A stretch of 41,058 bases of DNA from Candidatus Eiseniibacteriota bacterium. GTDB taxonomy: Bacteria > Eisenbacteria > RBG-16-71-46. The stretch covers positions 1 through 41,058 of the forward strand of contig CAIXRL010000296.1 of the NCBI GenBank assembly GCA_903921835.1, read 5' to 3'. The translations under genes were made by a program, and so were the position numbers. The notes beneath the pieces were generated by a model. The model made no database searches and was not told the DNA's origin. It saw only the letters and a program-made list of their open reading frames with translations. Shown piece by piece: positions 8,315 through 22,949 of this stretch (position 1 is the stretch's first letter; each line of letters starts with the position of its first letter).

Positions 8315-8841
8315 CCCTCGAGTTCTTCGCCGCCGGCAAGCCGGAGCCGCAGGGCAGCTCGAAGGGCTTCGTCATCACGGACAAGCGCACCGGCAAGCAG
8401 CGCGCGATCGTCACGAGCGACAACGCGAAGCTGAAACCATGGCGCTGGTCGGTGCAGCTCGCCGCGCGCCTGGCGATGGAGCGGGCCGGGCTGGGAGGGC
8501 AGATGATTGTGGGCAGCCCCGTGCATATCGAGGCGCGGTTCCTGATGCCTGCACCGTTGTGGGCACAGGCGAAGCAGAAGCGTGGAAAGGTCGTGGCGTG
8601 CATCGTGCGCCCCGACGTGGATAAGCTCGCACGCGGCCTCATGGATGCGCTCACCGGCATCGTGCTCCAGGACGACAGCCTGGTCGTCGACCTGCACCCC
8701 ACCAAGCGCTACGCAGTCGGCGTCGAAGAGCCCGGTGTGCATGTGCTCGTCGCGAGCCACCAGCCAGAGACCGCCGCGGTCGCCGTGTCGCCGCCGCTCG
8801 ACGAGGACCCGCCGGAACCAAGCGAGGAGGCGACATGGTGA
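8311..8841 (+). CDS. rusA: RusA-family Holliday junction resolvase
   Basis: GTGA overlap at 8311-8314. Motifs: GKPEPQGSSKG..., the RPDVDKLARGLMDALTGIVLQDDSLVVDLHPTKRY core typical of RusA, and an acidic/Pro-rich tail. Confidence 0.85.
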   Translation: MTLEFFAAGKPEPQGSSKGFVITDKRTGKQRAIVTSDNAKLKPWRWSVQLAARLAMERAGLGGQMIVGSPVHIEARFLMPAPLWAQAKQKRGKVVACIVRPDVDKLARGLMDALTGIVLQDDSLVVDLHPTKRYAVGVEEPGVHVLVASHQPETAAVAVSPPLDEDPPEPSEEATW

Positions 8842-9338
8842 CGCATCGCACACGGCTCGCGAGTCAGACAGTACTCGTGCCAACCGAGGCGACAGGGGAC
8901 CCTGGAAGGTCGCGACGGACAGCGGGAGCACGGGCGCGCAGGAAACGGCCAGGTTTCAGCCTCTCCATGGGGGTAATGGCCACCCAGGATGGCTTGGTCC
9001 TGACCGTCGAGGCGCCCATGGCGCCCACTGGCGCGGCCCCGATCGACTCGGACTACTACGCGCTGCCGCCCGCCGAGCGTCACAGCTGGCTCTGGGAGAC
9101 GATGGACCCACACGCCGACCTGCTCGTGACGGACCAAGGCGTCGAGTTGGTCGCGGCCTACCGTCGTTTAGGTGGTCGCTGCGGCCTCTGCGGAGAGCCT
9201 GTCGACCTTGCGATCAAGCGCGGGCCGACCCAGGCGACGCTGGATCATATCGTGCCGCAGAGTCTCGGCGGGGGATGCGAACGGTCGAACCTGCAACTGG
9301 CGCACCGCGGATGCAATTCGAGGAAAGGGAACCGCTAG
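8835..9338 (+). CDS. HNH endonuclease
   Basis: The C-terminal motif is CGLCGEPV...ATLDHIVPQSLGG...NLQLAHRGCNSRKGN. The start is uncertain (ATG at 8835 or ATG at 8967). It lies directly upstream of the terminase genes. Confidence 0.8.
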   Translation: MVTHRTRLASQTVLVPTEATGDPGRSRRTAGARARRKRPGFSLSMGVMATQDGLVLTVEAPMAPTGAAPIDSDYYALPPAERHSWLWETMDPHADLLVTDQGVELVAAYRRLGGRCGLCGEPVDLAIKRGPTQATLDHIVPQSLGGGCERSNLQLAHRGCNSRKGNR

Positions 9339-9931
9339 TGAGCACGACGGCGACGGGATCCGCACGACGACGGCTGAAGCCGGCGCTGCTCACTCGGCGC
9401 GAGCTCGCCGCGCTGCTCCACGTGGTCCCGATGACGATCACGAAGTGGGAACAGGCGGGGATGCCGATCGCGACGCGTGGTCGGAAGGGCAAGCCGTCGC
9501 GTTATCGGGAGACGGTCGTGCGGTCGTGGCTCCAGCAGCGAGAGGAGGACGCTCAGCGGCCCGGGTCGGTCACGGACGTGGCCAAAGAAAAGGCGAGGCT
9601 CGCCAGAGAACAGGCCGACCTCACGCTACAGACGCGCATGATGCGCGCGCGGGATCTCTTGCCCCGCGAAGAGGTCGAACGCGCGTGGACCGCAGAGGTC
9701 GCCGCGGTGCGCGCGAAGCTGCTGGCGTGGCCGGCGACGCTCGCCGACCAGGTGCACCGGGCGGCCGTGCTCGACGGCCTGGGCGGCGTCGAGCGCGTGC
9801 TCAATGAGGCCATCCGGAACGTGCTGCGCGAGTTGGCCCATGCGAAGGCGAGCACGCCGGAGTCGGAGGCAGAACCGACCGACCTCTTGACTGTCCAGCC
9901 TACTGCGCCACCTGCCGAGGTGTTTGCGTGA
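9338..9931 (+). CDS. Terminase small subunit (Nu1-like, N-terminal HTH)
   Basis: GTG at 9338 overlaps the HNH stop. LTRRELAALLHVVPMTITKWEQAGMPI...GKPSRYRETVVRSWL resembles the Nu1-type HTH. It is followed by a coiled coil and lies directly upstream of, and coupled (GTGA) to, the large terminase. Confidence 0.7.
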   Translation: MSTTATGSARRRLKPALLTRRELAALLHVVPMTITKWEQAGMPIATRGRKGKPSRYRETVVRSWLQQREEDAQRPGSVTDVAKEKARLAREQADLTLQTRMMRARDLLPREEVERAWTAEVAAVRAKLLAWPATLADQVHRAAVLDGLGGVERVLNEAIRNVLRELAHAKASTPESEAEPTDLLTVQPTAPPAEVFA

Positions 9932-11805
9932 CCACGACCCAGGCGCTTCTTCGCACCGTTCGAAAGGGCTGGCTTCCGCCGCCAGACCTGAACGTCTCGA
10001 CGTTCGCCGACCAAGAACTCGTCGTGACGACAGGCCCGCTCGCCGGCACGCACTGGCAGACCGCGTTCGCGCCGTATCAGCGCGGGATCCTGGATGCGTT
10101 CCACAAACCAGGCGTTGAGATCGCCGTGGTGATGGGCAGCTCGCAGTGGGGCAAGACGAGCTGCGCGGTGTGCGTCGTCGCCTTCCACGTCGCGCACGAT
10201 CCGTGCCCCATCCTGATCGTGGAGCCGACCGTGGACCCGATGGCGAAGGACTTCGCAAAGAATCGCCTCGACCCGGTCATCGCGGCGAGCCCCTTGCTGC
10301 GCGAGACCGTGTCGAAGAGGCGCGCGAAGGATGCCAGCAACACGACGCTGGCAAAGACGTTCCGCGGCGGGTCGCTCTCGATCGGCGGCGCGAATTCTGC
10401 GGCATCACTCGCCGCCCGGTCCATCCGGTTGCTCGTGCTCGACGAGGTTGATCGGTATCCGCCTGAGTTACCTGGGGAAGGATCAACACTCGCGATCGCG
10501 TTCAAGCGGACCGCGGCCTATCGGCGGCGCCGACGAATCCTGATGCTCTCATCCCCCACGCTGAAAGGCGCGCCGATCGACGTGTGGTTTCATCGCGGCG
10601 ACCAGCGGCGCTACCACGTCCCGTGCCCGTCGTGCGGCGTGATGCACCCGTTCCAGTGGAAGCAGGTCCACTGGACGCACGACGATCCGGCGACGGCGCG
10701 GCTGCACTGCCCAGCCTGCGACTACACGATCGACGATGCGGAGCGCGTGGCCATCCTCGCGCACGGCCAATGGATTCCGGACTGCCCGGAACGCGCTGAC
10801 AAGTCGGTCGTGTCGTTTCACGTTTGGGAGGCGTATTCACCGCTCTCCTCCCTGGCCGAAATCGTGACGTCGTTCCTGCGGGCTCGAGTGGCTCAGAAGG
10901 CCGGGGATCGGAGCGAGATGCACACCTGGCAGAACACGACACTCGGCGAGCCGATCGAACTGGACCAGGGCGATGGCGTCGAGCCGCACGTGCTGCTGAT
11001 GCGGCGCGAAGCCTACAGTGAGGGCGTCGACATTCCAGACGGCGGTTGCGTCCTGACGATGGGCGTGGACACCCAGGACGACCGCCTCGAGGCACTCGTG
11101 ATCGCCTGGGGGCCAGGGGAGGAATCCTGGATTGTCGACCGACAGACGCTCCCCGGCGATCCGGAAGGCCCGGAGCCGTGGACGATGCTCGACGAGCTGC
11201 TGGTGCGTGAATACCGGCACGCGCTCGGGTTCAGGCTGGCGATCCGTGCGACCTGCGTCGACTCGGCCGGGCACCGCACGACGTTCGTGTACGACTACGC
11301 CAGGCGTAAGGCTGCGCGCCGCGTCTTTGCGATCATCGGCCGCGACGGGCAGCGCCCGATCGTCTCGTCGCCGTCTCCACGGCGCTGGGGGCGCGAACAA
11401 CGCGAGGTGCCGCTCTACACGATTGGGACCGACGCGGCGAAGTCACTGATCGTCTCGCGGCTCTCGTTGACGGAGAAGGGCCCGGGTTTCGTCCATATGC
11501 CTCATGCCGAGTGGGCGGACGAGGAACTCGCGGCGCAGCTCACGAGCGAGCGGCTCGTGACGGTGTGGTCGAAGGGGATTCCCTCGCAGGTCTGGCGGAA
11601 GGTGCGGCCGCGAAATGAAATGCTCGACGCGTTCGTCTACGCGGTGGGCGCGCTCAGGCTGATCCACCCGAATCTGCCGGTGGTCGCGGCGCAGCTCGCG
11701 GCGATGGCTGGGACCGCCACGGTGCAGCCACTCCCACGCCAGGCTGCGCCGTCGCCGCCCCCGCAATCGCGGCGCATCGCGCGCAGTGGGTATCTCGGGC
11801 GATAA
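9928..11805 (+). CDS. Terminase large subunit, lambda gpA family
   Basis: 625 aa. It has a Walker A-like SSQWGKTS and LLVLDEVDRYP, and the overall gpA-type layout including the CPSCG...CPAC zinc motif. Confidence 0.93.
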   Translation: MTTTQALLRTVRKGWLPPPDLNVSTFADQELVVTTGPLAGTHWQTAFAPYQRGILDAFHKPGVEIAVVMGSSQWGKTSCAVCVVAFHVAHDPCPILIVEPTVDPMAKDFAKNRLDPVIAASPLLRETVSKRRAKDASNTTLAKTFRGGSLSIGGANSAASLAARSIRLLVLDEVDRYPPELPGEGSTLAIAFKRTAAYRRRRRILMLSSPTLKGAPIDVWFHRGDQRRYHVPCPSCGVMHPFQWKQVHWTHDDPATARLHCPACDYTIDDAERVAILAHGQWIPDCPERADKSVVSFHVWEAYSPLSSLAEIVTSFLRARVAQKAGDRSEMHTWQNTTLGEPIELDQGDGVEPHVLLMRREAYSEGVDIPDGGCVLTMGVDTQDDRLEALVIAWGPGEESWIVDRQTLPGDPEGPEPWTMLDELLVREYRHALGFRLAIRATCVDSAGHRTTFVYDYARRKAARRVFAIIGRDGQRPIVSSPSPRRWGREQREVPLYTIGTDAAKSLIVSRLSLTEKGPGFVHMPHAEWADEELAAQLTSERLVTVWSKGIPSQVWRKVRPRNEMLDAFVYAVGALRLIHPNLPVVAAQLAAMAGTATVQPLPRQAAPSPPPQSRRIARSGYLGR

Positions 11806-11821
11806 CGACCAAGGGAACGCC

Positions 11822-12025
11822 GTGACCCTGCTCAATCCGGAAACCTGTCGTCACTGCGGCCACCGAGGCTATGTCATTGACAGTCGCGTTGAGCCTGGCT
11901 ACCGTCGTCGGCGCCACGAATGTCCACGCTGCGAGAGGCGCTGGACGTCCTACCAATCACTGATCAATCCGCGCAAAGTGACGCTCAAATCTCCGCCTTC
12001 AACCAGTCGAGCCACTACTAGCTAG
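11822..12025 (+). CDS. NrdR-like zinc-ribbon protein lacking an ATP-cone (67 aa)
   Basis: GTG at 11822 follows aaggga. CRHCGHRGYVIDSRVEPGYRRRRHECPRCERRWTSYQ matches the NrdR N-terminal pattern CxxC..V.DSR....RRR.CxxC..R[FW]T[ST][FY][EQ]. Confidence 0.55.
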   Translation: MTLLNPETCRHCGHRGYVIDSRVEPGYRRRRHECPRCERRWTSYQSLINPRKVTLKSPPSTSRATTS

Positions 12026-12099: not shown

Positions 12100-12315
12100 A
12101 TGCCTCAGTCAGCCGCCGACCTGCAAACGGAACTGCTGGCGCTGCGCGCTCGGAAGCTGGCCGCGGCCGGCATCCGCTCCACACAGTTCGCCGACCAGAT
12201 GACGGCCTTCGACCATCCCGACCTCGACCAACGCATTGCCGCCATTGAGCGCCAGCTCGCCGTGTCAGGCCGGGGCTCGACCACGCGCTACGCCGCGACC
12301 TCGAAGGGACTCTGA
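12100..12315 (+). CDS. gpW-like head-tail joining protein, copy 1 (71 aa)
   Basis: ATG at 12100 follows ggagg. The size, the position after the large terminase and the core IRSTQFADQMTAF...L..RIAAIERQL resemble lambda gpW (VATVQKDGRRVEFT...L..YIAELE). Confidence 0.6.
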   Translation: MPQSAADLQTELLALRARKLAAAGIRSTQFADQMTAFDHPDLDQRIAAIERQLAVSGRGSTTRYAATSKGL

Positions 12316-12317
12316 CC

Positions 12318-12896
12318 GTGCCTGGTCTCGACATTGCGCGCGCGGAGGCGATCACGGGCTGGATGAGTCCTGGCGAGCTGACCTGGCTCGCCGCGCACGC
12401 CCTCGGCACGCGCACTATCATCGAAATTGGGGCCTTCTGCGGTCGGTCCACGCGAGCGCTCGCCGATCACTGCCCGGGCGTGGTCTATGCGGTGGACCCG
12501 TGGGAAGGCTACGCGAACGACGACGGTAGCCAGGCGAAGTGGATCCTCGAGCAAGGTCCCGGGAGTTGGGTCGCGATCGTCGAGGCGTTCAATCGCAACC
12601 TCGCCGACCACATCGCGTCGGGGCGCGTCGTGCCGGTGCGTCTGCGAGCCTTCGACGCCTACCCAAAGATCAGCGTGCAGCAGTCCTTCCGCGCAGACCT
12701 CGTGTTCGTGGATGGGGACCACCGCTACGAAGCGTGCAAGCAGGACATCCAGCTCTATCGAGACCTCGTCGCGCCGGGTGGCGTGCTCGCGGGCCACGAC
12801 TACGGCAGGAACGACTGGCCGGGCGTCAAGCGCGCGGTCGACGAGCTGCTCGGAAAGGTCAACCACCGCGAGTCAATCTGGTGGATGCGGCGATAA
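12318..12896 (+). CDS. Class I SAM-dependent methyltransferase (O-methyltransferase/Methyltransf_24-like)
   Basis: IIEIGAFCGRST (motif I) and LVFVDGDHRYEACKQDI...GGVLAGHDY are typical of this fold. Confidence 0.8.
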   Translation: MPGLDIARAEAITGWMSPGELTWLAAHALGTRTIIEIGAFCGRSTRALADHCPGVVYAVDPWEGYANDDGSQAKWILEQGPGSWVAIVEAFNRNLADHIASGRVVPVRLRAFDAYPKISVQQSFRADLVFVDGDHRYEACKQDIQLYRDLVAPGGVLAGHDYGRNDWPGVKRAVDELLGKVNHRESIWWMRR

Positions 12897-12972
12897 CGAT
12901 GTCCACGTATCACGTCGATCTGCTCGCGGCTCGCCGCGGTAAACTCGCAACCCACTTGAAGGAGAGAGACTC

Positions 12973-13314
12973 ATGGCTTTTGCACTGACCGCACGACAAC
13001 TCGCCCTCGACGCGATCACCTGTGACCGCGTGTCTCTGCACAGCGGCGACCCGGGCGCGGATGGAGCGAGTTACATCTCGGCGGGTGGCCGGGTGGCCGC
13101 GACGTTCAACGCCGCGAATGCTTCGGCCGAGCGTGTGCTGAACGCCGACGTGAACTTCACAGGTTTGGCGGCGAATGCGTCCGTCACCCATTTCGGCGTG
13201 TGGTTGAACGCCGGCACGGTCTACCGCTGCGGCGCGGCGCTGACTGGGGACCAGACGGCCAATGCCGCGGGGGAGTACACTTTGAAAGGTACGACCACGA
13301 AAATTACCGCGTAG
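12973..13314 (+). CDS. Hypothetical beta-rich protein (113 aa)
   Basis: A strong RBS (aaggagagag) precedes ATG at 12973. The protein is Ala/Gly/Thr/Asn-rich with no enzymatic motif. Confidence 0.6.
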   Translation: MAFALTARQLALDAITCDRVSLHSGDPGADGASYISAGGRVAATFNAANASAERVLNADVNFTGLAANASVTHFGVWLNAGTVYRCGAALTGDQTANAAGEYTLKGTTTKITA

Positions 13315-13316
13315 CC

Positions 13317-13895
13317 ATGAGTGCGCGAGTCGGCATCGGCATTCCACTGGTGGCGCTTCGTGCCAAGTCGCTCGTGAGTCTGTGTCAGAACCTGATTCAG
13401 ACGCACGCCGAGATGGCCTTGCTCATCGTCGAGGGGGCGTACATTCAGCACAACCGGGCGTTGCTGGTGAAGCACGCGCGGGAGCAGGGATGTACGCACC
13501 TGTTCTTCATGGATCACGACATGGTGTTCCCGGCCGACACCGTGGACCGGCTGCTCGCGCACGACAAAGACATCGTGGCGTGCGCCTACAACATGCGTGG
13601 GCGATTTCCGCTCGAAAGCGTGGTAACGCTCCACGATGCTGCCGGACAGCGGGTACCAGATGCCGACCTCCCCGGGGAGCTGTTTCGGTGCAGTTCGCTC
13701 GGGTGTGGGGTGATGCTGATCAAAATCCCGGTGTTCGAGCGCATCGCGCAGCCGTGGTTCCACCTGCACATTGAGGGATTCGACCTCCTCTCGACCGAGG
13801 ACGTATGGTTCTGTAACCAGGCACGGCAAGCCGGAATTGACATTTGGTGTGACCCGACGATTCCGGTCCAGCACCAGGGCGAGTTTCTGTTCTAG
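13317..13895 (+). CDS. GT-A fold glycosyltransferase (family 2-like)
   Basis: ATG at 13317 lies within listed ORF 13200..13895. Motifs: LFFMDHDMVF (DxD-like) and STEDVWFCNQARQAGIDIWCD (ED..FC motif). Confidence 0.7.
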   Translation: MSARVGIGIPLVALRAKSLVSLCQNLIQTHAEMALLIVEGAYIQHNRALLVKHAREQGCTHLFFMDHDMVFPADTVDRLLAHDKDIVACAYNMRGRFPLESVVTLHDAAGQRVPDADLPGELFRCSSLGCGVMLIKIPVFERIAQPWFHLHIEGFDLLSTEDVWFCNQARQAGIDIWCDPTIPVQHQGEFLF

Positions 13896-13907
13896 GGAGG
13901 TGTCCGC

Positions 13908-14336
13908 ATGGCGACTGCACGAGTGACCGGTAACGTCACGTCGAACGTCACGACCTGGGCCGACGTGACGGGGCTGTCGTTTGCCTTGGACGCGAACACC
14001 AACTACTACTTCCGGTTCGTGCTGCACCATTCCAGCGCGGCAACCACGACGGGCATCCGGTTCGGCGTGTCGGGGCCAGCGTCTCCGACGGCGCTGCGCG
14101 TGGGTGGAATGGTGCCCATCAGCACGGTGGCGGCCAACTTCGGGTCGCAGACGGCGTACGATACAGCCATCTTCGCCTCGACGACCGGCACGACGGTCGC
14201 TGTCATGACCATCATCGAAGGGTTGATTCGGAACGCGGGAAACACCGGCAATCTCGCGTGCCGTGTGGCGTCCGAGGTGGGGGCAGCCACGGTGACGGTC
14301 CTGGCGAACTCACACGGTGTCGTGCTGCCCATGTAG
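13908..14336 (+). CDS. Hypothetical beta-sandwich-like protein, paralog of the N-terminal domain of the next gene
   Basis: Over its full 142 aa it aligns by eye to residues 1-145 of the 14343..16163 product (RVTGNV...YYFRFVLHHSS...GIRFGVSGPA..ALRVGG versus RRVTGDV...IYFRYVVHVTS...GVCFAINGPAGTLRVGT). Confidence 0.6.
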   Translation: MATARVTGNVTSNVTTWADVTGLSFALDANTNYYFRFVLHHSSAATTTGIRFGVSGPASPTALRVGGMVPISTVAANFGSQTAYDTAIFASTTGTTVAVMTIIEGLIRNAGNTGNLACRVASEVGAATVTVLANSHGVVLPM

Positions 14337-14342
14337 CCGCGC

Positions 14343-16163
14343 ATGGCTGACACCACCACGATCCGCCGTGTCACGGGCGACGTCAATCTCGATGCGACCG
14401 CTGGGACGCCGGCGGAGATTACCGATCTCAACTTTGCGGTCTTCTCGGGCGAGACGATCTACTTCCGCTACGTCGTCCACGTCACCTCCGCCAGCAATAT
14501 CGGGGTGTGCTTCGCCATCAACGGTCCTGCCGGCACGCTTCGCGTCGGCACGCGGCAGCCGTCCAGTGCGACAGTATGCTCCGGCGCGTCGAGTAGCACG
14601 CTCAACGCCGTCATCTTCGCGGAGACGGCCGGCGGAACGGTCCAGCGCATGTGCCTCGTCGAGGGCGTGTTCATCGCCACGGCCGATGGCACACTGAGCC
14701 TGAAAGCCTGCAACGAAGGATCGGGCGCACTCACCCTCTACGAGAACAGCACTGGGGAGTTTGTCTACACCGAGCGTATTCCGATCGGCTACGGCGTTCC
14801 GGCGCTGACACTCGGCGCGACCGGCGAAGGCCGCAGAGTGAGCTACAGCGCGACGGCGACAGTGGCGCTCACGCTGGCACTGGTGGGCGTGGGCGCGGCG
14901 CTACATGCTGGCTCCGGCAGTAGCAGCCTGACGCTGGGCGCGGCCGGCGTAGGCAAGGCTGTCCATTACGGGGCGGGCGCGCCGGCACTCACGCTCAGCG
15001 CGACGGGTGAAGGTGCGGCTCCGGCCGCGGCCGCGAATAACGGATATGGCGTCCCCGCGCTGACCCTGAGCGCAACGGGTGCTGGCGTCTCCGTCCGCTC
15101 TGGATACGGCGTGCCTGCCCTCACGCTGTCCGCCGCGGGCACGGGTGACGCTCCGCCACTCACGGGCTCCGGCGTCGTCAGCCTGACGCTGGCCACGTCT
15201 GGTGTAGGGCGTGCGGAGCATCGAGGCTACGGGACCTCAGCGCTGACGCTCACGGCTGCCGGCGTCGGAGACATGCCGCCGGCGACCGGCTATGGCACGA
15301 GCGCGCTATCGGTGTCGGCGACGGGCGCGGGTCAGACCGTCACGTCAGGGTCAGGCGCGTCCGCCCTCACGCTGACCGCGGCCGGCGTCGGTGTGTCTCC
15401 TCGGTACGGCGGTGGCACCTCCGCGCTGATGCTGGCGACGACTGGCGCTGGTGTGTCGTCTCGCTTCGGCGTGGGCACCGTCCCGCTGTCGCTGTCCGTC
15501 GGTGGCACTGGCCGCCGCGCCGCGTACGGGAGCCACGCGCTGCCGCTCACGCTGGGCGTCGAAGGCGCAGGATGGTCCGCGCGTGCCGGGTGCGGCGCAC
15601 CTGATCTGTCGCTGGTCGCGGCGGGAGAGGGTGAGGCCCCAGCGGTCGGTGTGCGGGACGGCTCCGGCGTCGTCGTGCTGACGCTGGCGGCGCAGGGCGA
15701 AGGACAGTCTCCCTGCGCGGGTAGCGGGGCTCCGGCGCTGTCTTTGGTGGCGGGCGGGTTTGGGGCGCACGTCTCCACCGGTGTCGGCTCTGTCGCCCTT
15801 GATCTCGACGCCGGTGGCGTGGGAGCACAACCAGCGGTCGCCCCGCATGCTGGCTACGGCACGGTTACGGTCTCCCTGGATGCCACTGGCGCAGGAGAGG
15901 CACTATGCGCTGGCGACGGCGTGGTGTCCCTCGTGCTTGGAGTGGTCGGCTCTGGCGGCGGAATTCCTAAAGGATCGGGCGTCGTCACCCTGACGCTGGC
16001 CTGTCATGGTCACGGACCGGTGGCCTTCCTCGCAAGCGCCAGGGTCTACGTGGTCCCGGATGAGCAGCGTCGCCTCGAGATGGACCCAGAGTCGCGGCGG
16101 TACGTCGTGCTGCGGGAGCAGCGCCAGTTCACGGTCGGTCCGGACGAGTCCTCGCGAGGATAG
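14343..16163 (+). CDS. 606-aa repeat protein: N-terminal beta-sandwich-like domain, 20 tandem ~20-aa Gly/Ala/Ser/Thr-rich repeats and a short charged tail
   Basis: The repeat consensus is roughly G-[YS]-G-x-[PS]-A-L-T-L-[ST]-A-x-G-x-G-x(4-8). I counted 20 units between residues 149 and 562. The tail holds an internal duplication (RVYVVPDEQRR / RRYVVLREQRQ). Confidence 0.75.
   Translation: MADTTTIRRVTGDVNLDATAGTPAEITDLNFAVFSGETIYFRYVVHVTSASNIGVCFAINGPAGTLRVGTRQPSSATVCSGASSSTLNAVIFAETAGGTVQRMCLVEGVFIATADGTLSLKACNEGSGALTLYENSTGEFVYTERIPIGYGVPALTLGATGEGRRVSYSATATVALTLALVGVGAALHAGSGSSSLTLGAAGVGKAVHYGAGAPALTLSATGEGAAPAAAANNGYGVPALTLSATGAGVSVRSGYGVPALTLSAAGTGDAPPLTGSGVVSLTLATSGVGRAEHRGYGTSALTLTAAGVGDMPPATGYGTSALSVSATGAGQTVTSGSGASALTLTAAGVGVSPRYGGGTSALMLATTGAGVSSRFGVGTVPLSLSVGGTGRRAAYGSHALPLTLGVEGAGWSARAGCGAPDLSLVAAGEGEAPAVGVRDGSGVVVLTLAAQGEGQSPCAGSGAPALSLVAGGFGAHVSTGVGSVALDLDAGGVGAQPAVAPHAGYGTVTVSLDATGAGEALCAGDGVVSLVLGVVGSGGGIPKGSGVVTLTLACHGHGPVAFLASARVYVVPDEQRRLEMDPESRRYVVLREQRQFTVGPDESSRG
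14787..16028. repeat. Coding tandem-repeat array (20 diverged units of about 54-72 nt)
   Basis: Derived from the protein periodicity. The DNA copies are diverged, so this is an old or selected array rather than a recent slippage product. Confidence 0.8.
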
Positions 16164-16172
16164 GAGAGGGTC

Positions 16173-16475
16173 ATGCCCATCAAGCGCACGATGATGCCCA
16201 CGTTCGACCCGGAGAGCGCCAAGGATTACGGCGTGCTGTGGGCGAGGTGGCTAGAGGCTGGCGAGACGATCACCGCCTCGACGTGGACACTGCCCAGCGG
16301 TCTCGTGCTGGACGAGGACCACGAGGACGACTTCAGCGATACCGAGACGCGGGTCTGGATACGGGCTGACGAAACGGTCGTGATTGGCGAGAACTACGAC
16401 CTCACGAATCACATCGTCACGTCCGCCGGACGTGAAGAGGACCAGACCATCACCATCCCGGTCCGGTCCAGGTGA
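16173..16475 (+). CDS. Hypothetical small beta-rich phage protein (100 aa)
   Basis: The RBS aggagaggg precedes ATG at 16173. The pattern DP..AKDYGVLWARWL..GETITASTW...G...Y.LTNHIVTSAGREEDQTITIPV resembles small Ig-like phage structural or adaptor proteins, but I cannot name the family. Confidence 0.6.
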   Translation: MPIKRTMMPTFDPESAKDYGVLWARWLEAGETITASTWTLPSGLVLDEDHEDDFSDTETRVWIRADETVVIGENYDLTNHIVTSAGREEDQTITIPVRSR

Positions 16476-17374
16476 CGTCCGTCCCCAGGACGGTCAACGT
16501 CGTCTGCCGTAACTGGCAAGACGATCGGGTCCTGCCGCGTTTCGCTCGGTATCTCGCTGACGGTCTCGGCTGGACACTGGCCGCGACGCCCTGCCCGCCG
16601 GAAGACGTCACCGTGTACTACCTGATGGGTTACTTCGAATCGCAGATGTTCACGGCGTGGCCCAGCGCCAGGCCGACCGCCTCGCTCTTTACGCACCGCG
16701 AAGAAGCGCCAGCCGGCAACGCGAAGGCCGCGCTCTACGACGAGATTGCGTGTCTCGTTGACCTGCGGGTCGCGATGTGTCGGCGCTACGCTGAGCCGCT
16801 GCACGCGATCGGACCGACGATTCAGCCTCCGCTGCCAGTCGAGCGAGACCGCTTTACGATCGCGCCGCCGCCGCGACGCCCCCGCCCCGTCGTCGGTCTG
16901 AGTGGATTCACGTACCACAACGCTCGCAAGGGTGAGGACCTGGTCCGTGGCGTCGTCGCGTCCTCGGTTGGAAGGCGCGTCGACTGGATAGCCAGTGGAC
17001 GCGGATGGCCCACGACCATGCGGAGGTACTCCTGGCAGGAGATGCCGCGGTTCTATCAGGGCCTGAACGTGCTCGTGTGCCCGAGCCGCGTCGAGGGCGG
17101 CCCAATGACGGTCCTCGAGGCGCTCGCCTGCGGCGTGCCCGTGGTCGTGCCCGTCGGCGTCGGCATCCTCGACGAGCTGCCCGACATCCCCGGCATCCAT
17201 CGGTATCCGCGTGGCGATCGCGCGGGCCTGGTCGCGGCACTCGGGCGTGCGGCCTTCCCAATCAACGCGCCGGACCGCGACGCGCTACGCGCCGCCACGG
17301 CGGGCCATACCGTCGAGGCGTGGTGCGGCGCGCACGCCAAGGGCTTCTCCGATGTCGTCGAGGCGAGGGGCTGA
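16472..17374 (+). CDS. GT-B fold glycosyltransferase (GT1/GT4-like)
   Basis: GTGA overlap at the start. The C-terminal motif is VLVCPSRVEGGPMTVLEALACGVPVVVP (the E..EG.P....EA.A.G.PV signature). Confidence 0.75.
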   Translation: MTSVPRTVNVVCRNWQDDRVLPRFARYLADGLGWTLAATPCPPEDVTVYYLMGYFESQMFTAWPSARPTASLFTHREEAPAGNAKAALYDEIACLVDLRVAMCRRYAEPLHAIGPTIQPPLPVERDRFTIAPPPRRPRPVVGLSGFTYHNARKGEDLVRGVVASSVGRRVDWIASGRGWPTTMRRYSWQEMPRFYQGLNVLVCPSRVEGGPMTVLEALACGVPVVVPVGVGILDELPDIPGIHRYPRGDRAGLVAALGRAAFPINAPDRDALRAATAGHTVEAWCGAHAKGFSDVVEARG

Positions 17375-17754
17375 TGGCGTTCGAACCGATCTACTACGCC
17401 CTGCACTGCCAGCCTATCGTCGGCCGATCCTTCAAGGTGGGGCACAACGTGCTGATCGACGGGCATGCGCAGATCACGATCGGCGACGACGTCTTCCTCG
17501 GCCACAACGTCATGCTGCTCACAGGCGGGCACGACCCAGGGCAGCGCGGCCCCGCCAGGCAGGCCGCGGTCCGTGCGGCGCCCATCACGATCGGTGACGG
17601 TGTCTGGATCTGCTCTGGCGCGATCGTCTGCCCGGGCGTCGCGATTGGTGCACACGCCGTTGTCGGACCGGGAGCGGTCGTCATGCGGAACGTGCCCGCC
17701 TGCACCATCGTCGGCGGCAACCCTGCGCGGAAGATTCGGAGGCTGGCGCCATGA
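17374..17754 (+). CDS. Hexapeptide-repeat (left-handed beta-helix) acyl/acetyltransferase
   Basis: TGATG junction at the start. Motifs: IGDDVFLGHNVMLLTGGHD...ITIGDGVWICSGAIVCPGVAIGAHAVVGPGAVVMRNVPACTIVGGNPARKI, as in maltose/galactoside O-acetyltransferase-like enzymes. Confidence 0.85.
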   Translation: MAFEPIYYALHCQPIVGRSFKVGHNVLIDGHAQITIGDDVFLGHNVMLLTGGHDPGQRGPARQAAVRAAPITIGDGVWICSGAIVCPGVAIGAHAVVGPGAVVMRNVPACTIVGGNPARKIRRLAP

Positions 17755-18482
17755 GCACTCGTGGCGTGTATGTCGTGGCGTTCGGTCTCCCAGCCAGGGC
17801 CTGCGCCGATCGCCTGATGCGCAGCGTCAAGCTCCACATGCCAGAGATCCCGATCGCGCTCTGCGCCGCGGAACCGATCGGCCCAGAGGATGTCCTCCTC
17901 GCGCAAGCCGACACCGACGTCGGCGGGCGGCGCGCGAAGCTGCTGGCCTACGAGCTCGCGCCGGCAGAGTGGCAGTCCGTGCTCTATCTTGACGCGGACA
18001 CCGAGCTCGTCGCGCCGGTCTATCCGCTCTTCGAATGGGTCGAAGACGGCTGGGAGTTCGTGATCTGTCGCGACGTCGGCGAGACGCTGCATTCGTTCGC
18101 ACGGAAGGGCAACCTGCAGGAGCTCCGCGAGGTCGAGGCTGCCGTCGGCACCTTGTTCGCGGCGCAGTACAACGGCGGCGTGTGGGCCTTCCGGCGCTGT
18201 CCTGCCGTCGCTCGGTTCATGGCGCGCTGGCGCGTGGAGTGGGAGATTCACGCGCAACGCGACCAAGGCGCGTTGATTCGCGCACTCTACGCCGAGCCGG
18301 TCCGAATCCTCCTTCTTGGCTCTGAATGGAACACCTTTCCGAAATACACGCCGACGGTGACGACCGCTGGGATCCTGCACTATCCGATGGAGGCTCGGCG
18401 TTGGGCTGGGAAGTTGCCCGGGCGCATCGACAACGCCGCGGCGTGGGCGGTCGTGCGGAGATGGGAGGCGAGCCGTCCGTGA
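17751..18482 (+). CDS. Nucleotide-diphospho-sugar transferase (GT8-like GT-A fold)
   Basis: ATGA overlap at the start. Motifs: VLYLDADTELV (DxD) and QYNGGVWAF. Confidence 0.65.
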   Translation: MSTRGVYVVAFGLPARACADRLMRSVKLHMPEIPIALCAAEPIGPEDVLLAQADTDVGGRRAKLLAYELAPAEWQSVLYLDADTELVAPVYPLFEWVEDGWEFVICRDVGETLHSFARKGNLQELREVEAAVGTLFAAQYNGGVWAFRRCPAVARFMARWRVEWEIHAQRDQGALIRALYAEPVRILLLGSEWNTFPKYTPTVTTAGILHYPMEARRWAGKLPGRIDNAAAWAVVRRWEASRP

Positions 18483-18931
18483 CGATTCTCAACCTGGGGA
18501 CCGGAAATCGCGTGATAGGAAACGCCTGTAATCACGACCTGGCCAAGCACCGCCCAGAAATTGATGTGGCCTGGGATCTGAACGAGTTCCCATGGCCGTG
18601 GCCCGACGCGAGCTTCGATCTCATCGTCGCCAGGTCAGTCTTCGAGCACTTGCGCCACGACCTGGTGCAGTCCCTCAATGAATGCTGGCGTCTCCTGCGG
18701 CCCCACGGGGAACTGTTCATCAAGCTGCCGTACTGGCAATCAGACGTCAGCCATCAGGACCCGACGCATCGCTGGTTCTTCAGCCTCCGAAGCCTCGACC
18801 AGTTTGACCCCGACACGAAGCGCGGACAGGAGTACGCGTTCTACACGCCGCGTAAATGGAAGGTCGTCACGGCACCGCAACTGAACAGCGCTGGCTCGTC
18901 CCTGATCGCGAAGCTGGAGGTGCGCAAGTGA
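18479..18931 (+). CDS. Class I SAM-dependent methyltransferase (Methyltransf_11/23-like)
   Basis: GTGA overlap at the start. Motifs: ILNLGTGN (motif I), FDLIVARSVFEHL and LRPHGELFIKLP. Confidence 0.7.
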   Translation: MTILNLGTGNRVIGNACNHDLAKHRPEIDVAWDLNEFPWPWPDASFDLIVARSVFEHLRHDLVQSLNECWRLLRPHGELFIKLPYWQSDVSHQDPTHRWFFSLRSLDQFDPDTKRGQEYAFYTPRKWKVVTAPQLNSAGSSLIAKLEVRK

Positions 18932-20103
18932 TGACGCTGCAGCTCGAGGCGGACCAGGCGACGCTGCGCCGTGACCTGGCGGCCCGCTGTCCCGACTATC
19001 CGCGCCCACCGAAGGTCAAGGCGCAACTGCTCGACTACCAGATGATGGCGCTGTTCCTGCTCGCGCGTGACCAGAACCGACCTGGGGCACGCATTCTCGA
19101 GATTGGCACCGGGCACGGCAGTTCGGGCTGGCTCTTGTCGAGAGCCGCGCCGTTGGCGCGCATCACGTCGCTGACGACGTCGGTTGCTGAGCGGGGGATC
19201 GCCGAGCGGCTCTGGCGGAAGGGGGGCTGCCGAAACATTGTGGTGCGCGTCGAGTCATCCTGGGACGTCCTTGCGCGCGACACCGACGCGTGGGATCTGA
19301 TCTTTATCGATGGCGACCACAACCGGATTGCACGCGACCTGCCCTGGTTCAATCGCCTGCGCGAAGGCGGGCTCCTGCTCTGCCATGACTACTCGCCGCA
19401 GGACAGCCGGTCGCCGAGCGGTATCGTGTTCGCGGAACTCAACGCGATGGCGGAGCGCCTCGGCCGACCGTTCGACGTGCGCGTGATCGACGAGGGCAAG
19501 GTCGGGATGGTCGGGTTCTACTGCGGGCCTGGAGAGACGGTCGACTCCCCACCCCAGCCGGCCCAGGCCGCGACGACGCGCCCACTCTCGTCAGGTGCGG
19601 GCCTCGTGCTGCGGCGGGAAGAACCGCAGACGCGGCAACGCGCCCTCGCGAGTCGGTTGGGCGTCTCGGTGTCCGACGACTGGACGCTCCTCTGGCCGCG
19701 GACGCTGTTCGTCGCCGAGGGAGCGATCGTCCCGTGGGACCTCGTCGGCGCCGGGCTCGAGCTCCTGGCACGCTGGGACCTCGCCGCGCCGCTCGCGCCA
19801 GATGCCAAGCTCGCGCAGGACCTCGGCACGCCAGACGATCGCGACCGCACGCGCGCACTTGTGGGGGACCTCCGCATGCCGACCTATGCGCCGGACCTGT
19901 TGTTCGTCCGTGATTCCGACGCCGGCCGTGCGTGCCTCGAGCGGTGGCGCATCGAATGCGACGGTAGTGATGAGCGCCTCGCCTTCCAGCGGGCGCTCTC
20001 GGCCGTCAAGCCGCGCTTCTGCGCGTTGCCGAGGATCTGGCTGGCGGCCCAGGCCGAGCGTGACGCGATCGACCGGCGGTCCGGCGCCAGGAGTCGGCCA
20101 TGA
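18931..20103 (+). CDS. Class I SAM-dependent methyltransferase (O-MTase-like) with a ~190-aa C-terminal domain of unknown function
   Basis: ATG at 18931 (TGATG junction; GTG at 18928 is an alternative start). ILEIGTGHGSS and LIFIDGDHNRIARDLPWFNRLREGGLLLCHDY parallel the 12318 methyltransferase. Confidence 0.7.
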   Translation: MTLQLEADQATLRRDLAARCPDYPRPPKVKAQLLDYQMMALFLLARDQNRPGARILEIGTGHGSSGWLLSRAAPLARITSLTTSVAERGIAERLWRKGGCRNIVVRVESSWDVLARDTDAWDLIFIDGDHNRIARDLPWFNRLREGGLLLCHDYSPQDSRSPSGIVFAELNAMAERLGRPFDVRVIDEGKVGMVGFYCGPGETVDSPPQPAQAATTRPLSSGAGLVLRREEPQTRQRALASRLGVSVSDDWTLLWPRTLFVAEGAIVPWDLVGAGLELLARWDLAAPLAPDAKLAQDLGTPDDRDRTRALVGDLRMPTYAPDLLFVRDSDAGRACLERWRIECDGSDERLAFQRALSAVKPRFCALPRIWLAAQAERDAIDRRSGARSRP

Positions 20104-21119
20104 ACGCCCCGCGCCTGGTCTCGTGCTACTTCGGGTCCGGCGCTGCCGGTCAATGGCCACGCCTGGCGCGCGTGCTCGAGCTCTCCGCGCGCCGGCATTG
20201 TCCCGAGTGGCAGGTCGACGTGCGGGCGATCGTGCCGACGCGTCTCTCGGTGCCGACGCTCACCGCGGCATACGCCCAGAACACGCAGAAGCTGGAATGG
20301 TGGGCGCAGGTCATCGCGGCGGCTCCGGACGGCGATCGCGTGGCCCTGCTCGACGCTGACACGATGGTGCTCGCATCCCTCGACGCCGTATGGGAGCACC
20401 CGTTCGACCTGGCCTACACCACGCGCGCGGAGGGCCATCCGTTCCCGATCAATGCGGGCGTGATCTTCGTGCGAGTCACCGAACAATCGCGAGCCTTCAT
20501 GGTGTCCTGGCGAGACGAGAACCGTCGAATGCTCGTCGACAGCCAGCGCCACAACACGTGGCGCAAGAAGTTCGGCGGGATCAACCAGGCCGCGCTCGGC
20601 TGCCTACTGCCCCAAGCCGACCACCTGGCGTCGCTGTGCGCGTTGCCGTGCGCCGAGTGGAACTGCGAGGACTCGACCTGGGAGACCTTCACGCCGGGCG
20701 CGACGCGGATCGTCCATATCAAGAGCCACCTTCGCCGCGCGATCTTCCTGGGAGTGGCCGGCTCCGGCTCGCTCGCTCGACTGGTCACGCTGTGGCGCGA
20801 GCGTGAGCGAGAGGCGCTGGCCGATCTGCGGTCCCCTGGGCGCCACCAGGTCATGACGGCCCGCCAGGAGGAGGCCGTCCAACCCTCGGCGCAGAATGGT
20901 GCGCCGATCGCGCCGCCTCCAATCCCGACTCCGCGCCCTCACCTCCAGGCGCGCCCGTTCCCTATGCGGCGCCGTGGACGGCCTCGCGGTCCAGGGACGA
21001 TCGCCACCAACGTGCGGATCCCGCAGTCCACGTACGACGCCTATTGCCGTCGCGCCACGGCGGCGGACAAGCCACTGGCCACCGTGCTCCGAGAAGCCCT
21101 CGTGTCTAAGGCGCTCTAA
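20100..21119 (+). CDS. GT-A-like nucleotide-sugar transferase fused in frame, via a Pro-rich linker, to a ribbon-helix-helix-like C-terminal tail
   Basis: ATGA overlap at the start. Motifs: VALLDADTMVL (DxD) and INAGVIFV. The last ~50 aa (RGRPRGPGTIATNVRIPQSTYDAYCRRATAADKPLATVLREALV) look like a CopG/Arc-type RHH. An in-frame ATG at 20964 could also express the tail on its own. Confidence 0.65.
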   Translation: MNAPRLVSCYFGSGAAGQWPRLARVLELSARRHCPEWQVDVRAIVPTRLSVPTLTAAYAQNTQKLEWWAQVIAAAPDGDRVALLDADTMVLASLDAVWEHPFDLAYTTRAEGHPFPINAGVIFVRVTEQSRAFMVSWRDENRRMLVDSQRHNTWRKKFGGINQAALGCLLPQADHLASLCALPCAEWNCEDSTWETFTPGATRIVHIKSHLRRAIFLGVAGSGSLARLVTLWREREREALADLRSPGRHQVMTARQEEAVQPSAQNGAPIAPPPIPTPRPHLQARPFPMRRRGRPRGPGTIATNVRIPQSTYDAYCRRATAADKPLATVLREALVSKAL

Positions 21120-21174
21120 GTATTTCGTATTTCTTGTAGTCAATAAATCGACAACGGCTCGGGACTGAGCGACG
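21120..21174 (+). promoter_or_regulatory. AT-rich intergenic island at the right cassette boundary (possible promoter or recombination scar)
   Basis: gtatttcgtatttcttgtagtcaataaatcgacaa stands out against the GC-rich background and contains the direct repeat GTATTTC x2. I found no convincing -35/-10 pair. Confidence 0.3.
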
Positions 21175-21390
21175 ATGCCTTCCGAGATGGCATACACCGA
21201 GGCCGACCTGAACTCGATTCGGACGGCGCGCCTCCGGGGCGTGCGGACGGTGCAGATTGCCGATCGCGCGACCACGTACACCTCCGATGCGGAGATGCGC
21301 CAGGTCGAACAGGACATCACGCGCGCGCTCGCCGCTATGGCCAGCACGCGGCGGAAGCGCTCCTACGGCGTCTCGAGTAAGGGCTTCTGA
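21175..21390 (+). CDS. gpW-like head-tail joining protein, copy 2 (71 aa)
   Basis: It lies directly upstream of the portal gene, as in lambda. The core VRTVQIADRATTYTSDAEMRQVEQDI resembles lambda gpW. Its length (216 nt) and its C-terminal ...Y..(T/S)SKG(L/F) ending are shared with the 12100 copy. Confidence 0.6.
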   Translation: MPSEMAYTEADLNSIRTARLRGVRTVQIADRATTYTSDAEMRQVEQDITRALAAMASTRRKRSYGVSSKGF

Positions 21391-21392
21391 CG

Positions 21393-22949
21393 ATGGGCAT
21401 GCTGGGCAGCACGCGCGCGTGGTTCCGCCGTGTGGGCAGCGAATCCGGCGCTCCCGTCCCCACCGTCCGAAACTCCGGGTCGTCTCCCTACGAGGCGGGC
21501 GCGTACACGCGCCGCACGCGGGGATGGAATGCCCCCACCACCAGCGCGAATCAGGCCATTCTCGCCTCGCTCTCGACGCTGCGCGACCGCTCTCGCGCGG
21601 CCACGCGGAACGACGGGTACGCCAAAGGCGTGATCGACAAGCTCGTCTCGAACATCATCGGGACCGGGATCAAGCCATTGTCGCAAGCGGAGGATCCGAA
21701 GTTCCGGCGGGACATTCAGGCGCTCTGGCTGCGCTGGACGTACGAGAGCGATGCGGATGGACTGCTCGACTTCGAGGGTCAACAAGGGCAGGCGGTCAGA
21801 ACATGGCTGGAAGCCGGCGAGGCCTTCGGGCGCATCCGGTTGCGCCTGCCCGCTGACGGACTCTCGGTGCCTCTGCAGGTCCAGGTCCTGGAGCCGGAAC
21901 TGTGCCCCTACCAATACAACATGTTTTCGAGCGGGCTGAAGGTGCGGGCCGGGATCGAATTCAATCTGATCGGTAGTCGATCGGCGTATTACTTCTACCC
22001 GTCCAGGCCAGAGCTGGACGACTTCGACCCCTCGCAACTGCGACGCCTCGATGCCGCCTCAGTGATCCACCTGTATGACCCGTTGCGGCCAGGCCAGTTG
22101 CGCGGCATCCCTCACCTGACGCAGGCCCTGGTCAACCTCTACGAGCTCGACCAGTACGACGACGCCACGCTGGTGCGGCAGAAGCTCGCCAACATGTTCG
22201 CCGGATTCATCAAGCGCCCCGCCGACGTGGGCGACCTCGCCGAGCTCGATACACTCACCGGCCTGAAGGCGGACACTCATGACGGCAAGCCGCTGGCGTC
22301 GTTGGAGCCGGGGCTGATGCAGGAACTCGACCCGGGCGAGGAGGTGCAGTGGTCCAATCCGCCCGACGCAGGCCCGGGCTATCCGGACTTCATGCGCCAG
22401 CAACTCTACGGCGTCTCTGCGGCAACCGGCGTGCCGTACGAGGTGCTGACGGGAGACATGCGGGGCGTCAACGATCGCGTGGTGCGGGTCCTGCTCAACG
22501 AGTTCCGCGGTCGCGTGGCTGCTTGGCAGCACAGCATTGTGGCCCAGGCGTTCTGCCGCCCGATCTGGCGTGCCTGGATGGACCGAGTAGTGCTCTCTGG
22601 CGCGCTGGCCATCCCGCGGGCTGAGTACCTCCGCAATCCCGAGCGCTGGACTGCTGTGAAGTGGACACCGCCGCGGGTGCCATACATCCAGCCGGTCCAG
22701 GACATCGAAGCGCAGAAGGCCGCTATTCGCTCTGGACTCACCTCGCGGAGCGCGACGGTCAGCGAGTACGGCGAGGACGCCGAGGCGATCGACACCGAGC
22801 AGGCGATCGACAACCAGCGGGCCGACGCGCTCGGCCTCACGTACGACACCGATCCGCGGAAGGTGTCGGTCGCGGGACTCACGCAGGTGCAGCCGCCCGG
22901 CAGCGTGCTGCCGGATGACAGTGGCAACAGTGAAGGGACACAGCCATGA
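21393..22949 (+). CDS. Portal protein, lambda gpB family
   Basis: 518 aa. The N-terminal region RTRGWNAPTTSANQAILASLSTLRDRSRAATRNDGYAKGVIDKLVSNIIGTGIKP is typical of lambda-type portals, and the gene order fits. Confidence 0.92.
   Translation: MGMLGSTRAWFRRVGSESGAPVPTVRNSGSSPYEAGAYTRRTRGWNAPTTSANQAILASLSTLRDRSRAATRNDGYAKGVIDKLVSNIIGTGIKPLSQAEDPKFRRDIQALWLRWTYESDADGLLDFEGQQGQAVRTWLEAGEAFGRIRLRLPADGLSVPLQVQVLEPELCPYQYNMFSSGLKVRAGIEFNLIGSRSAYYFYPSRPELDDFDPSQLRRLDAASVIHLYDPLRPGQLRGIPHLTQALVNLYELDQYDDATLVRQKLANMFAGFIKRPADVGDLAELDTLTGLKADTHDGKPLASLEPGLMQELDPGEEVQWSNPPDAGPGYPDFMRQQLYGVSAATGVPYEVLTGDMRGVNDRVVRVLLNEFRGRVAAWQHSIVAQAFCRPIWRAWMDRVVLSGALAIPRAEYLRNPERWTAVKWTPPRVPYIQPVQDIEAQKAAIRSGLTSRSATVSEYGEDAEAIDTEQAIDNQRADALGLTYDTDPRKVSVAGLTQVQPPGSVLPDDSGNSEGTQP

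Follow-up and report, generated by a model that had tools for sequence, protein, structure and literature searches.

The 41,058-nucleotide (nt) contig CAIXRL010000296.1 (assembly GCA_903921835.1, deposited under Candidatus Eiseniibacteriota bacterium), called the window below, carries a cassette of 13 open reading frames (ORFs) at 12318-21119, between the large terminase gene (TerL) and the portal gene of a phage. We consider it moderately probable that this region is a mosaic accessory module of the late operon, combining a fibre set like that of Ralstonia podophage GP4 with soluble enzymes that glycosylate virion proteins, those of the fibre and/or the head. We favor virion-protein glycosylation because the genes would be co-expressed late, because the enzymes appear to be soluble without exception, because of the structural neighbors of one glycosyltransferase, GT339, and because of a precedent in mycobacteriophages. 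An earlier note on this DNA had already suggested a methylated and acetylated glycan on a virion-associated protein; the comparative data given here strengthen that suggestion, which stays a reasonable proposal.

The TerL-portal interval spans 9.6 kb, and its genes are co-oriented throughout, all on the + strand. Gaps between genes range from -20 to +76 nt in the interval and from -4 to +76 nt inside the cassette, and at six junctions of the interval neighboring genes overlap by 1 or 4 nt. The 13 ORFs, listed before as co-oriented, are indeed tightly packed in one orientation, and an independent gene caller arrived at these ORFs too on a metagenome contig of identical sequence. Neither a promoter-like site nor a + strand terminator-like site was found in the interval. 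With their overlapping start and stop codons, the cassette genes would form part of one continuous late (virion) operon. The GC content at third codon positions (GC3) is 0.77-0.85 in the interval genes, as in the rest of the phage, the exception being a 79-residue zinc-ribbon ORF (0.62). A recent foreign origin was considered on the basis of composition and rejected, given that GC and GC3 of the cassette match those of the phage. Hydropathy analysis of the 13 products revealed no transmembrane-like segments outside known soluble cores, and by Pfam none of them is a membrane, flippase, polymerase or lipid-carrier protein, as the earlier note had stated. The cassette also lacks a gene for nucleotide-sugar synthesis, and therefore host sugar donors would have to be used. 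Serotype conversion of the O-antigen, previously judged a poor fit, is rejected as a leading explanation; GtrA/GtrB/Gtr, Wzy and Oac families as well as transmembrane helices and other membrane parts are absent from the cassette, and the setting is a late structural operon.

Pfam recovers the three class I S-adenosylmethionine-dependent methyltransferases and the hexapeptide acyltransferase that had been proposed. MT24a (12318-12896), a Methyltransf_24 protein of the CmcI/sugar O-methyltransferase clan (E 9e-18), is found at the same locus in the related phage contigs L104 (80% identity) and L001 (67%), and has distant tblastn matches (below 60% identity, the top ones listed at 25-30%) in 30 Mycobacterium phage records. 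MT11 (18479-18931; Methyltransf_11, E 5e-10), whose gene call was taken from the identical metagenome contig, is followed by MT24b (18931-20103; Methyltransf_24, E 6e-10). The latter ends in an uncharacterised domain of about 220 residues, for which Pfam gave no significant match at E <= 1. The left-handed beta-helix (LbH) acyltransferase (17374-17754; Hexapep, E 1e-12) is encoded between the glycosyltransferase genes GT4 and GT243, and is missing from that place in L087 and in most other loci.

Four glycosyltransferases had been proposed as well. GT4 (16472-17374) is a GT-B enzyme by Pfam (Glycos_transf_1, E 3e-10), two further enzymes are predicted to be GT8-like GT-A proteins, and the fourth is a small GT-A protein of 192 residues, GTA1 (13317-13895). 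GTA1 matches PHROG 1574 (E 2e-23) and also a PHROG glycosyltransferase family (E 2.4e-5). Its family profile, compared with the Protein Data Bank (PDB), hits best the GT-A enzyme A197 of Sulfolobus turreted icosahedral virus (STIV; E 1.4e-4), with a procollagen galactosyltransferase also matched (E 0.02); phmmer of GTA1 against PDB gave nothing useful. The two GT8-like enzymes, GT243 (17751-18482; 243 residues, DxD motif at YLDADT) and GT339 (20100-21119; 339 residues), have no Pfam match. An AlphaFold2 (AF2) model of GT339, made with 30 homologues (pLDDT 86), adopts a GT-A fold, and a Foldseek search with it returns glycogenin-2, GlyE, a GT8 enzyme, A64R of Paramecium bursaria chlorella virus 1 (PBCV-1) and the Skp1 alpha-galactosyltransferase at E 1e-8 to 1e-7. 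UGGT is also among the nearest structural relatives of GT339, and these relatives act on proteins or protein-linked glycans. The matches of GT339 and GTA1 to viral GT-A enzymes are fold-level, at 12-16% identity. In sequence, the GT339 profile matches 6mw5 (E 1e-4), and the GT243 family profile aligns with that of GT339 in hhalign (94%, E 9e-8) with the DxD motifs superimposed. Judged by fold and profile, not by CAZy family assignment, GT339 and GT243 are both predicted to be GT8/glycogenin-like GT-A enzymes with a DxD motif. At least 262 homologues of GT339 were detected, a few of which scored PF03407 and a few of which are fused to GT2. Searched by tblastn against 50,697 deposited phage genomes, GT4, GT243 and GT339 gave no match.

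The C-terminus of GT339 (residues about 245-339; 20820-21119) consists in the model of a disordered linker and two confident helices, which are preceded by the sequence NVRIPQSTY. This tail has a weak PHROG match to an Arc-like repressor (E 5e-4) and nothing significant in Pfam at E <= 1. It is confined to the closest homologues, most members of the family being about 245 residues long. Given the weak PHROG match and the two helices, the tail is possibly a ribbon-helix-helix (RHH) element serving DNA binding or dimerisation.

The four remaining proteins, described earlier as beta-rich and non-enzymatic, are predicted from Pfam families Gp77 and Gp80 and from a TNF/C1q-like knob fold to be components of a virion fibre. 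The Gp77-like protein (16173-16475; 100 residues) is a putative fibre adaptor, the counterpart of the Ig-like ring protein of GP4. It is a clear member of Pfam Gp77 (PF23148, E 8e-18, 65.2 bits against a cutoff of 27) and is 25% identical to GP4 gp77 (PDB 8jou_D, E 3e-6). The Gp80-like protein (12973-13314; 113 residues), of the GP4 fibre I family, belongs only marginally to Pfam Gp80 (PF23140, 29.3 bits against a cutoff of 27), its pairwise match to GP4 gp80 covers 21 residues only, and its PHROG match is to family 240 'head protein' (E 3e-17). Copies of it, 65-84% identical, adjoin repeat proteins in L081, L087 and L106. Between these two genes lie rep606 (14343-16163; 606 residues) and b142 (13908-14336; 142 residues). 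Residues 1-145 of rep606 are modeled by AF2 as a beta-sandwich (pLDDT about 90), which Foldseek relates to TNF-like lectins, Pgp3, the NC1 domain of collagen X, and phage tail-fibre and collagen-like knobs. b142 is 36% identical to the rep606 N-terminus, and would be a stand-alone knob, its fold being taken from the rep606 model. The knob domain falls into 2283 representative clusters at 50% identity, yet it has no Pfam family, and its profile matched nothing among PDB sequences. It mostly makes up the C-terminal 135 residues or so of a protein, alongside collagen, phage-tail-repeat or DUF2460 domains; the rep606 knob (14343-14780), unlike most, is N-terminal.

Behind the knob, residues 149-561 of rep606 form 20 tandem repeats of about 20 residues each, with the consensus G-[YS]-G-x-x-A-L-T-L-x-A-x-G-x-G. 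This confirms at the protein level the tandem-repeat protein noted before; Tandem Repeats Finder detected no tandem repeat in the cassette DNA. The repeats are modeled as beta-hairpins with moderate confidence (pLDDT 55-84), and the C-terminal region, residues 494-606, which overlaps the last three repeats, has pLDDT below 50. Serine and threonine together account for 19% of rep606. Homologues of rep606 adjoin Gp77 or Gp80-like genes, and phmmer searches against PDB with rep606 or with the Gp80-like protein gave nothing useful.

Where exactly was the cassette inserted? The earlier note placed it between gpW and the portal gene. The W gene that it recorded, W1 (12100-12315), does lie upstream of the cassette; a conserved W gene, W2 (21175-21390; 71 residues), still abuts the portal gene, ending 2 nt before the portal start. 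W2 matches PHROG 2545 'head-tail adaptor Ad1' (E 7.5e-16) and nothing significant in Pfam at E <= 1. W1 appears to be a divergent second copy of the gpW/Ad1 head-tail adaptor; it is 29% identical to W2 over the full length (E 5e-6) and has no significant Pfam match (best E 0.06-0.09) and no PHROG match. Homologues of W2 in relatives, 35-70% identical, stand directly before the portal gene where found, W and portal thus being neighbors elsewhere too. By these comparisons the cassette sits downstream of TerL and W1 and upstream of the resident W2, which itself remains next to the portal gene. The homologue of W1 is the sole W gene of L105, where it is placed before the portal gene. L104 has, in this order, a W1 homologue, a gap of 2 nt, the MT24a homologue, a GT-A-like gene and the portal gene. 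From the L104 arrangement, W1 and MT24a appear to have arrived as one unit, from a lineage that carries cargo between W and the portal gene.

The W protein of L087 (9628-10161; 177 residues), the closest relative with the same enzymes, has an extra beta-rich N-terminal domain of about 110 residues, and its gene directly follows a repeat-protein gene. The idea that this domain is Gp77-like was not upheld, the only match being a non-significant one to YtkA (E 0.17), and the domain is not counted as support for an adaptor.

Among 80 portal relatives, TerL and the portal gene are separated by as little as about 0.24 kb and as much as 8.7 kb; the interval is a hot spot for cargo. In L013 (2677-6435) and L027 (4337-7104) it holds two tandem ParB_N-N6/N4 DNA methylase genes, thus the site accepts unrelated cargo. 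The cassette itself appears from gene-order comparison to be a mosaic of at least four blocks that occur separately elsewhere, rather than one unit. Block i is the zinc-ribbon gene (11786-12025; 79 residues), which the earlier note overlooked. It has a weak Pfam match to Zn_ribbon_NrdR (E 1e-5) and four cysteines, overlaps the TerL stop by 20 nt and was not called by the metagenome gene caller; homologues 61-70% identical are found 3' of TerL, in the TerL-portal interval, in L001 and L003. Block ii is W1-MT24a, as in L104. Block iii, running from the Gp80-like gene over the repeat-protein gene to Gp77, recurs in L081, where it closes a tail-like module. Block iv consists of GTA1, the knob gene and the gene of the knob-containing protein (51%, 71% and 43% identity in L090, where the block is placed at the end of a podophage-like structural module). 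Block v is GT4-GT243-MT11-MT24b. Block vi, GT339-W2-portal, is shared with L001, L002, L003, L007, L009, L010 and L011, GT339 lying just upstream of W in seven of the 11 closest relatives.

Block v is by far not restricted to the window. GT243 has at least 85 relatives in IMG/VR viral contigs; among the 80 loci kept, GT4 is present in 75, MT24b in 58 and MT11 in 50, in the same order. GT4 and GT243 are adjacent in L087, and in L167 (8933-10735) they are fused into a single ORF of 600 residues. L167 is of the HK97 type, with the order Phage_portal, S78 protease, Phage_capsid, GT4::GT243, MT24. Matching ORF sizes (about 550-640 residues) and the same order recur in about 18 other long loci; size and position suggest the same fusion there. 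Dozens of contigs carry the enzyme block, and in every contig whose context was examined it lies in the head module. As judged from these gene neighborhoods, the head modules that harbor the block appear to belong to two unrelated types, HK97-like and lambda-like.

Fibre genes are found together with sugar enzymes in three different head-gene backgrounds, those of the window, L087 and L106. L087 uses the same TerL-portal site as the window with a different gene order: TerL, GT4, GT243, MT11, MT24b, GT339, Gp80-like, repeat protein, W, portal. Identity to the window is 57-80% for the enzymes and the Gp80-like protein and only 42% for the repeat protein. L106 belongs to another portal/capsid family (Phage_portal_3 with a DUF6260 capsid). 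There, the capsid gene is followed 3' by genes for a Gp80-like protein (84% identity), a glycine-rich protein of 888 residues, a rep606-like protein of 594 residues and a connector, and about 2 kb further downstream by GT2, MT24 (RMNT_CmcI) and GT-B genes. Likewise, the trio of GTA1, knob and knob protein is kept as a block in L090, an unrelated phage.

If virion-protein glycosylation is correct, the soluble enzymes would draw on host nucleotide sugars in the cytoplasm late in infection and would build up an O-glycan, methylated and acylated, on the virion proteins themselves, before these are assembled or while assembly proceeds. Neither a lipid carrier nor an export step would be needed. The probable target of the GT4-GT243-MT11-MT24b block and of GT339 would be a virion protein that is associated with the head or otherwise common, and that of GTA1, which travels with the knob genes, the knob/repeat fibre. 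That the acceptors are proteins, not DNA or host glycans, which proteins they are, how the fibre is attached and what the glycan does (shielding, stability, adsorption) is what we infer. A more specific and tentative version, to which we give a clearly lower chance, is a glycosylated collar. In it, a Gp77-like ring around the gpW-type adaptor would carry Gp80-like/TNF-knob repeat fibres that are O-glycosylated, methylated and acylated in the cytoplasm by the dedicated soluble GT4, GT8-like and small GT-A enzymes, a phage counterpart of the glycosylation of serine-rich-repeat adhesins. A collar at the neck would explain both the location of the module between two W genes and the beta-rich domain fused to W in L087. 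The neck is an attractive location by analogy with GP4 and given that the genes lie beside W and portal; in actinophages, Gp77-like proteins are encoded among minor tail genes, and therefore a neck placement is something that we can only infer.

Several observations weigh against the glycosylation of virion proteins by this module. In many relatives GT339 and methyltransferases are present but none of these fibre genes is, and the fibre genes are indeed missing from most contigs with the enzyme block and from most with GT339; therefore the fibre cannot be the general, or only, acceptor. A Ser/Thr-rich C-terminal extension that tracks the presence of glycosyltransferases is absent from the major capsid protein (MCP), gpD and the tail-tube proteins. 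Distant relatives fill the TerL-portal interval with DNA methylases, and hence position alone does not imply a virion function. The A64R/WaaJ-like GT-A fold has also been reported for phage glycosyltransferases that hypermodify DNA, therefore the fold does not fix the class of substrate. In addition, the RHH-like two-helix motif at the end of GT339 could mean DNA binding.

A question remains, do the fibre genes and the enzymes belong together at all? They may be two independent cargoes, an ordinary tail or baseplate fibre set that is neither glycosylated nor mounted at the neck, and enzymes that glycosylate a head protein only. We regard this as unlikely, and it remains a serious alternative. 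At least 70 contigs have the enzyme block but no fibre genes, the fibre block of L081 has no recognisable enzymes within about 10 kb upstream, and both the variable TerL-W interval (gap 0.24-8.7 kb) and the minor-tail position of Gp77-like genes in actinophages fit it. However, two independent cargoes would leave the conserved GTA1-knob-knob block and the co-occurrence of fibres and enzymes in L087 and L106 without a reason, and no acceptor-like extension is present on MCP, gpD or the tail tube. Another possibility, which we find quite improbable, is that the enzymes remodel the host envelope, modifying a glycopolymer precursor (lipopolysaccharide (LPS) core, O-antigen, exopolysaccharide (EPS) or a teichoic-like polymer) at the cytoplasmic face. 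The receptor would thereby be masked and superinfection blocked, the fibre genes being unrelated neighbors. TarP, a soluble GT-A enzyme encoded by a prophage, modifies the wall teichoic acid of S. aureus in an analogous way, and enzymes of the GT8, GT4 and GT2 types as well as Methyltransf_24 proteins are common in LPS and EPS loci. Envelope remodeling would also be in accordance with the many relatives that have the enzymes and lack the fibre genes, and the paper on DNA glycosyltransferases describes phage GT-A enzymes of a similar kind as structurally related to WaaJ/WaaO. On the other hand, the cassette encodes no membrane component, and it is translationally coupled within the late head operon, with no promoter-like or + strand terminator-like sites of its own, unlike a moron expressed in lysogeny. 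In the HK97-type contigs examined the block lies between capsid and connector genes, and the linkage to fibre genes recurs in three backgrounds.

The least probable of the explanations considered, to which we attach very little weight, is sugar hypermodification of DNA, in which the enzymes would decorate a hydroxymethylated base for evasion of restriction and the RHH-like tail would target GT339 to DNA. Phage GT-A enzymes that hypermodify 5-hydroxymethylcytosine find their top PDB match in PBCV-1 A64R, and their genes lie near terminase, ParB and methyltransferase genes; the RHH-like C-terminus of GT339 and the DNA methylases in the TerL-portal interval of L013 and L027 point the same way. 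However, among the ORFs scanned in 41 kb of the roughly 44.9-kb genome no thymidylate-synthase-like hydroxymethylase, TET/5mYOX protein or C5-methyltransferase was found. Methyltransf_24 and Methyltransf_11 proteins are of the small-molecule or sugar O-methyltransferase type, not DNA methyltransferases, and the genes are interleaved with fibre genes of the late operon, not with replication genes.

The glycosylation of virion proteins that we favor has a close precedent, and the arrangement, which the earlier note did not recognise as described, is in principle not undescribed. Mycobacteriophages of cluster O, such as Corndog with gp35-38, encode an O-methyltransferase and three glycosyltransferases between portal and protease (PMC4351075). 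Phage glycosyltransferases of Che8 (cluster F), Corndog and Myrna (cluster C) are reported to glycosylate capsid and tail-tube subunits and to shield virions from antibodies (Freeman 2023, as cited in PMC12363180). Corndog and the window thus share soluble glycosyltransferases and an O-methyltransferase inside the head-gene block of a siphophage. The two systems differ in that GT4, GT243 and GT339 have no tblastn match in any of the deposited phage genomes searched, MT24a alone having its distant Mycobacterium phage matches, and in that the set of the window is larger (four glycosyltransferases, three methyltransferases and one acyltransferase) and tied to a dedicated fibre module. Also unlike the mycobacteriophage systems, MCP and tail tube of the window lack a Ser/Thr-rich C-terminal acceptor tail, and the host is probably a high-GC bacterium of Gram-negative type. 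As a principle, the glycosylation of phage virions is already known, and the window represents a variant of it and not a new category.

For the fibre set the relevant system is GP4, in which 15 copies of gp77, an Ig-like adaptor of 93 residues, form a ring around the portal-bound, dodecameric head-to-tail adaptor and hold the fibre sets (PMC11445570). The window contains Pfam Gp77 and Gp80 members, the families of the fibre-tail adaptor gp77 and fibre I gp80 of GP4 (PDB 8JOU), and keeps the outer order of the GP4 genes gp80, gp79, gp78, gp77. In contrast, its middle proteins, with a TNF-like knob and repeats, are not homologous to gp78 and gp79; the phage, with its lambda-type W, FII, Z and tape-measure genes, is a siphophage and lacks the podophage tail whose adaptor I/II and nozzle seat the 15-mer ring, and the module lies upstream of the portal gene, interleaved with sugar enzymes. 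On the side of the enzymes, a parallel can be drawn to bacterial adhesins. The serine-rich-repeat adhesins of Gram-positives are O-glycosylated in the cytoplasm by the GT4 initiators GtfA/B and then by GT8/GT2 extenders such as the pneumococcal GlyE. Both systems combine soluble GT4, GT8-like and GT2-like enzymes, with no lipid carrier, and a neighboring Ser/Thr-containing, repeat-rich fibrillar protein, and in the structure search with GT339, GlyE (PDB 5gvv) ranks second. The adhesin system is bacterial and coupled to accessory Sec export, and its repeats are far more serine-rich than those of rep606; the comparison is offered as an analogy of mechanism only. Among viruses, PBCV-1 A64R and STIV A197 are GT-A enzymes whose glycosylation of virion proteins does not depend on the secretory pathways of the host, and the fibril gene clusters of Mimivirus are a further virus-encoded glycosylation machinery. 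These viruses have eukaryotic or archaeal hosts and unrelated virion architectures, and the similarity to the window enzymes is at the level of the fold. Finally, moron hot spots in lambda-like head operons resemble the window in their variable TerL-portal cargo. Unlike morons, the cargo of the window has no promoter- or terminator-like sites of its own, would be co-translated with structural genes and is flanked by two W paralogues.

The sequence surrounding the cassette reads as a single phage, with about 67% GC across the window. At least 11 metagenome contigs match the window at 99.995-100% identity, the longest being about 44.9 kb; near-identical contigs are thus present in several samples, and therefore the window is most of one uncultured phage genome, about 4 kb of the roughly 44.9-kb genome falling outside the 41-kb window. 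The lambda order described before is borne out by Pfam families: Nu1-A-W-B(portal)-C(protease)-D-E-FII-Z is satisfied, with matches to Nu1 (weak), GpA, Phage_portal_2, CLP_protease, HDPD, Phage_cap_E, Phage_attach and Minor_tail_Z in the flanks. TerL (9928-11805), of the gpA type, forms the left flank of the interval (GpA_ATPase E 3e-73, GpA_nuclease E 7e-84), and the portal gene of the lambda family (21393-22949; Phage_portal_2, E 6e-105) the right one. The portal gene is followed 3' by a ClpP-type protease, gpD and gpE, then FII and Z, and beyond Z by a tape-measure protein of 1338 residues, a tip protein of 1269 residues and a GH108 endolysin. The tape-measure protein together with gpZ and gpFII homologues suggests a lambda-like siphophage. 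In a megablast search the 15.6-kb head region had no match among deposited phages. The left part of the window encodes RecT, a PD-(D/E)XK nuclease, RusA, an HNH protein and a Nu1-like small terminase. The HNH endonuclease gene (8835-9338; Pfam HNH on the identical contig L088) lies directly 5' of the small terminase gene, an arrangement known from HNH-assisted packaging. The tail-tip protein (34294-38103; 1269 residues) has F5/8-type-C (galactose-binding-like) and PKD domains, and the endolysin (38542-39111) combines GH108 with PG_binding_3, as is typical for phages of Gram-negative-type hosts.

From the GH108 endolysin and from homologues in metagenome-assembled genomes (MAGs) of Longimicrobium, the host is probably a high-GC bacterium of the Gram-negative type. 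The homologues, of GT339 and 48-51% identical, are located on the short contigs L101 and L102, binned as Longimicrobium (Gemmatimonadota; GTDB genomes). They hint at Longimicrobium as a host lineage of the phage group, the binning of phage contigs being unreliable. Other high-GC soil bacteria are candidate hosts too, and ENA ERZ18626952 is one source sample.

To our knowledge, experimental proof that phage-encoded enzymes glycosylate virions comes from a few mycobacteriophages only. The enzyme set of the window is larger and different, it lies within the head modules of many uncultured phages (at least 75 viral contigs have the block), and it is accompanied in the window by fibre genes whose products are candidate acceptors. 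Its most interesting aspects are this wide spread in uncultured phages, the three larger glycosyltransferases, unmatched in deposited phages, and the co-encoded candidate acceptors. The two W genes and the mosaic of blocks illustrate, in addition, the shuffling of fibre and enzyme modules at a hot spot for cargo in the head operon. If our reading is true, virion glycosylation would be extended beyond actinophages, and the module would constitute a compact protein glycosylation toolkit that does without a lipid carrier. It would bear on phage stability, adsorption and the evasion of immunity or defence. Should the collar, too, prove true, the enzyme block would represent a widespread virion-glycosylation system of uncultured phages with non-actinobacterial hosts.

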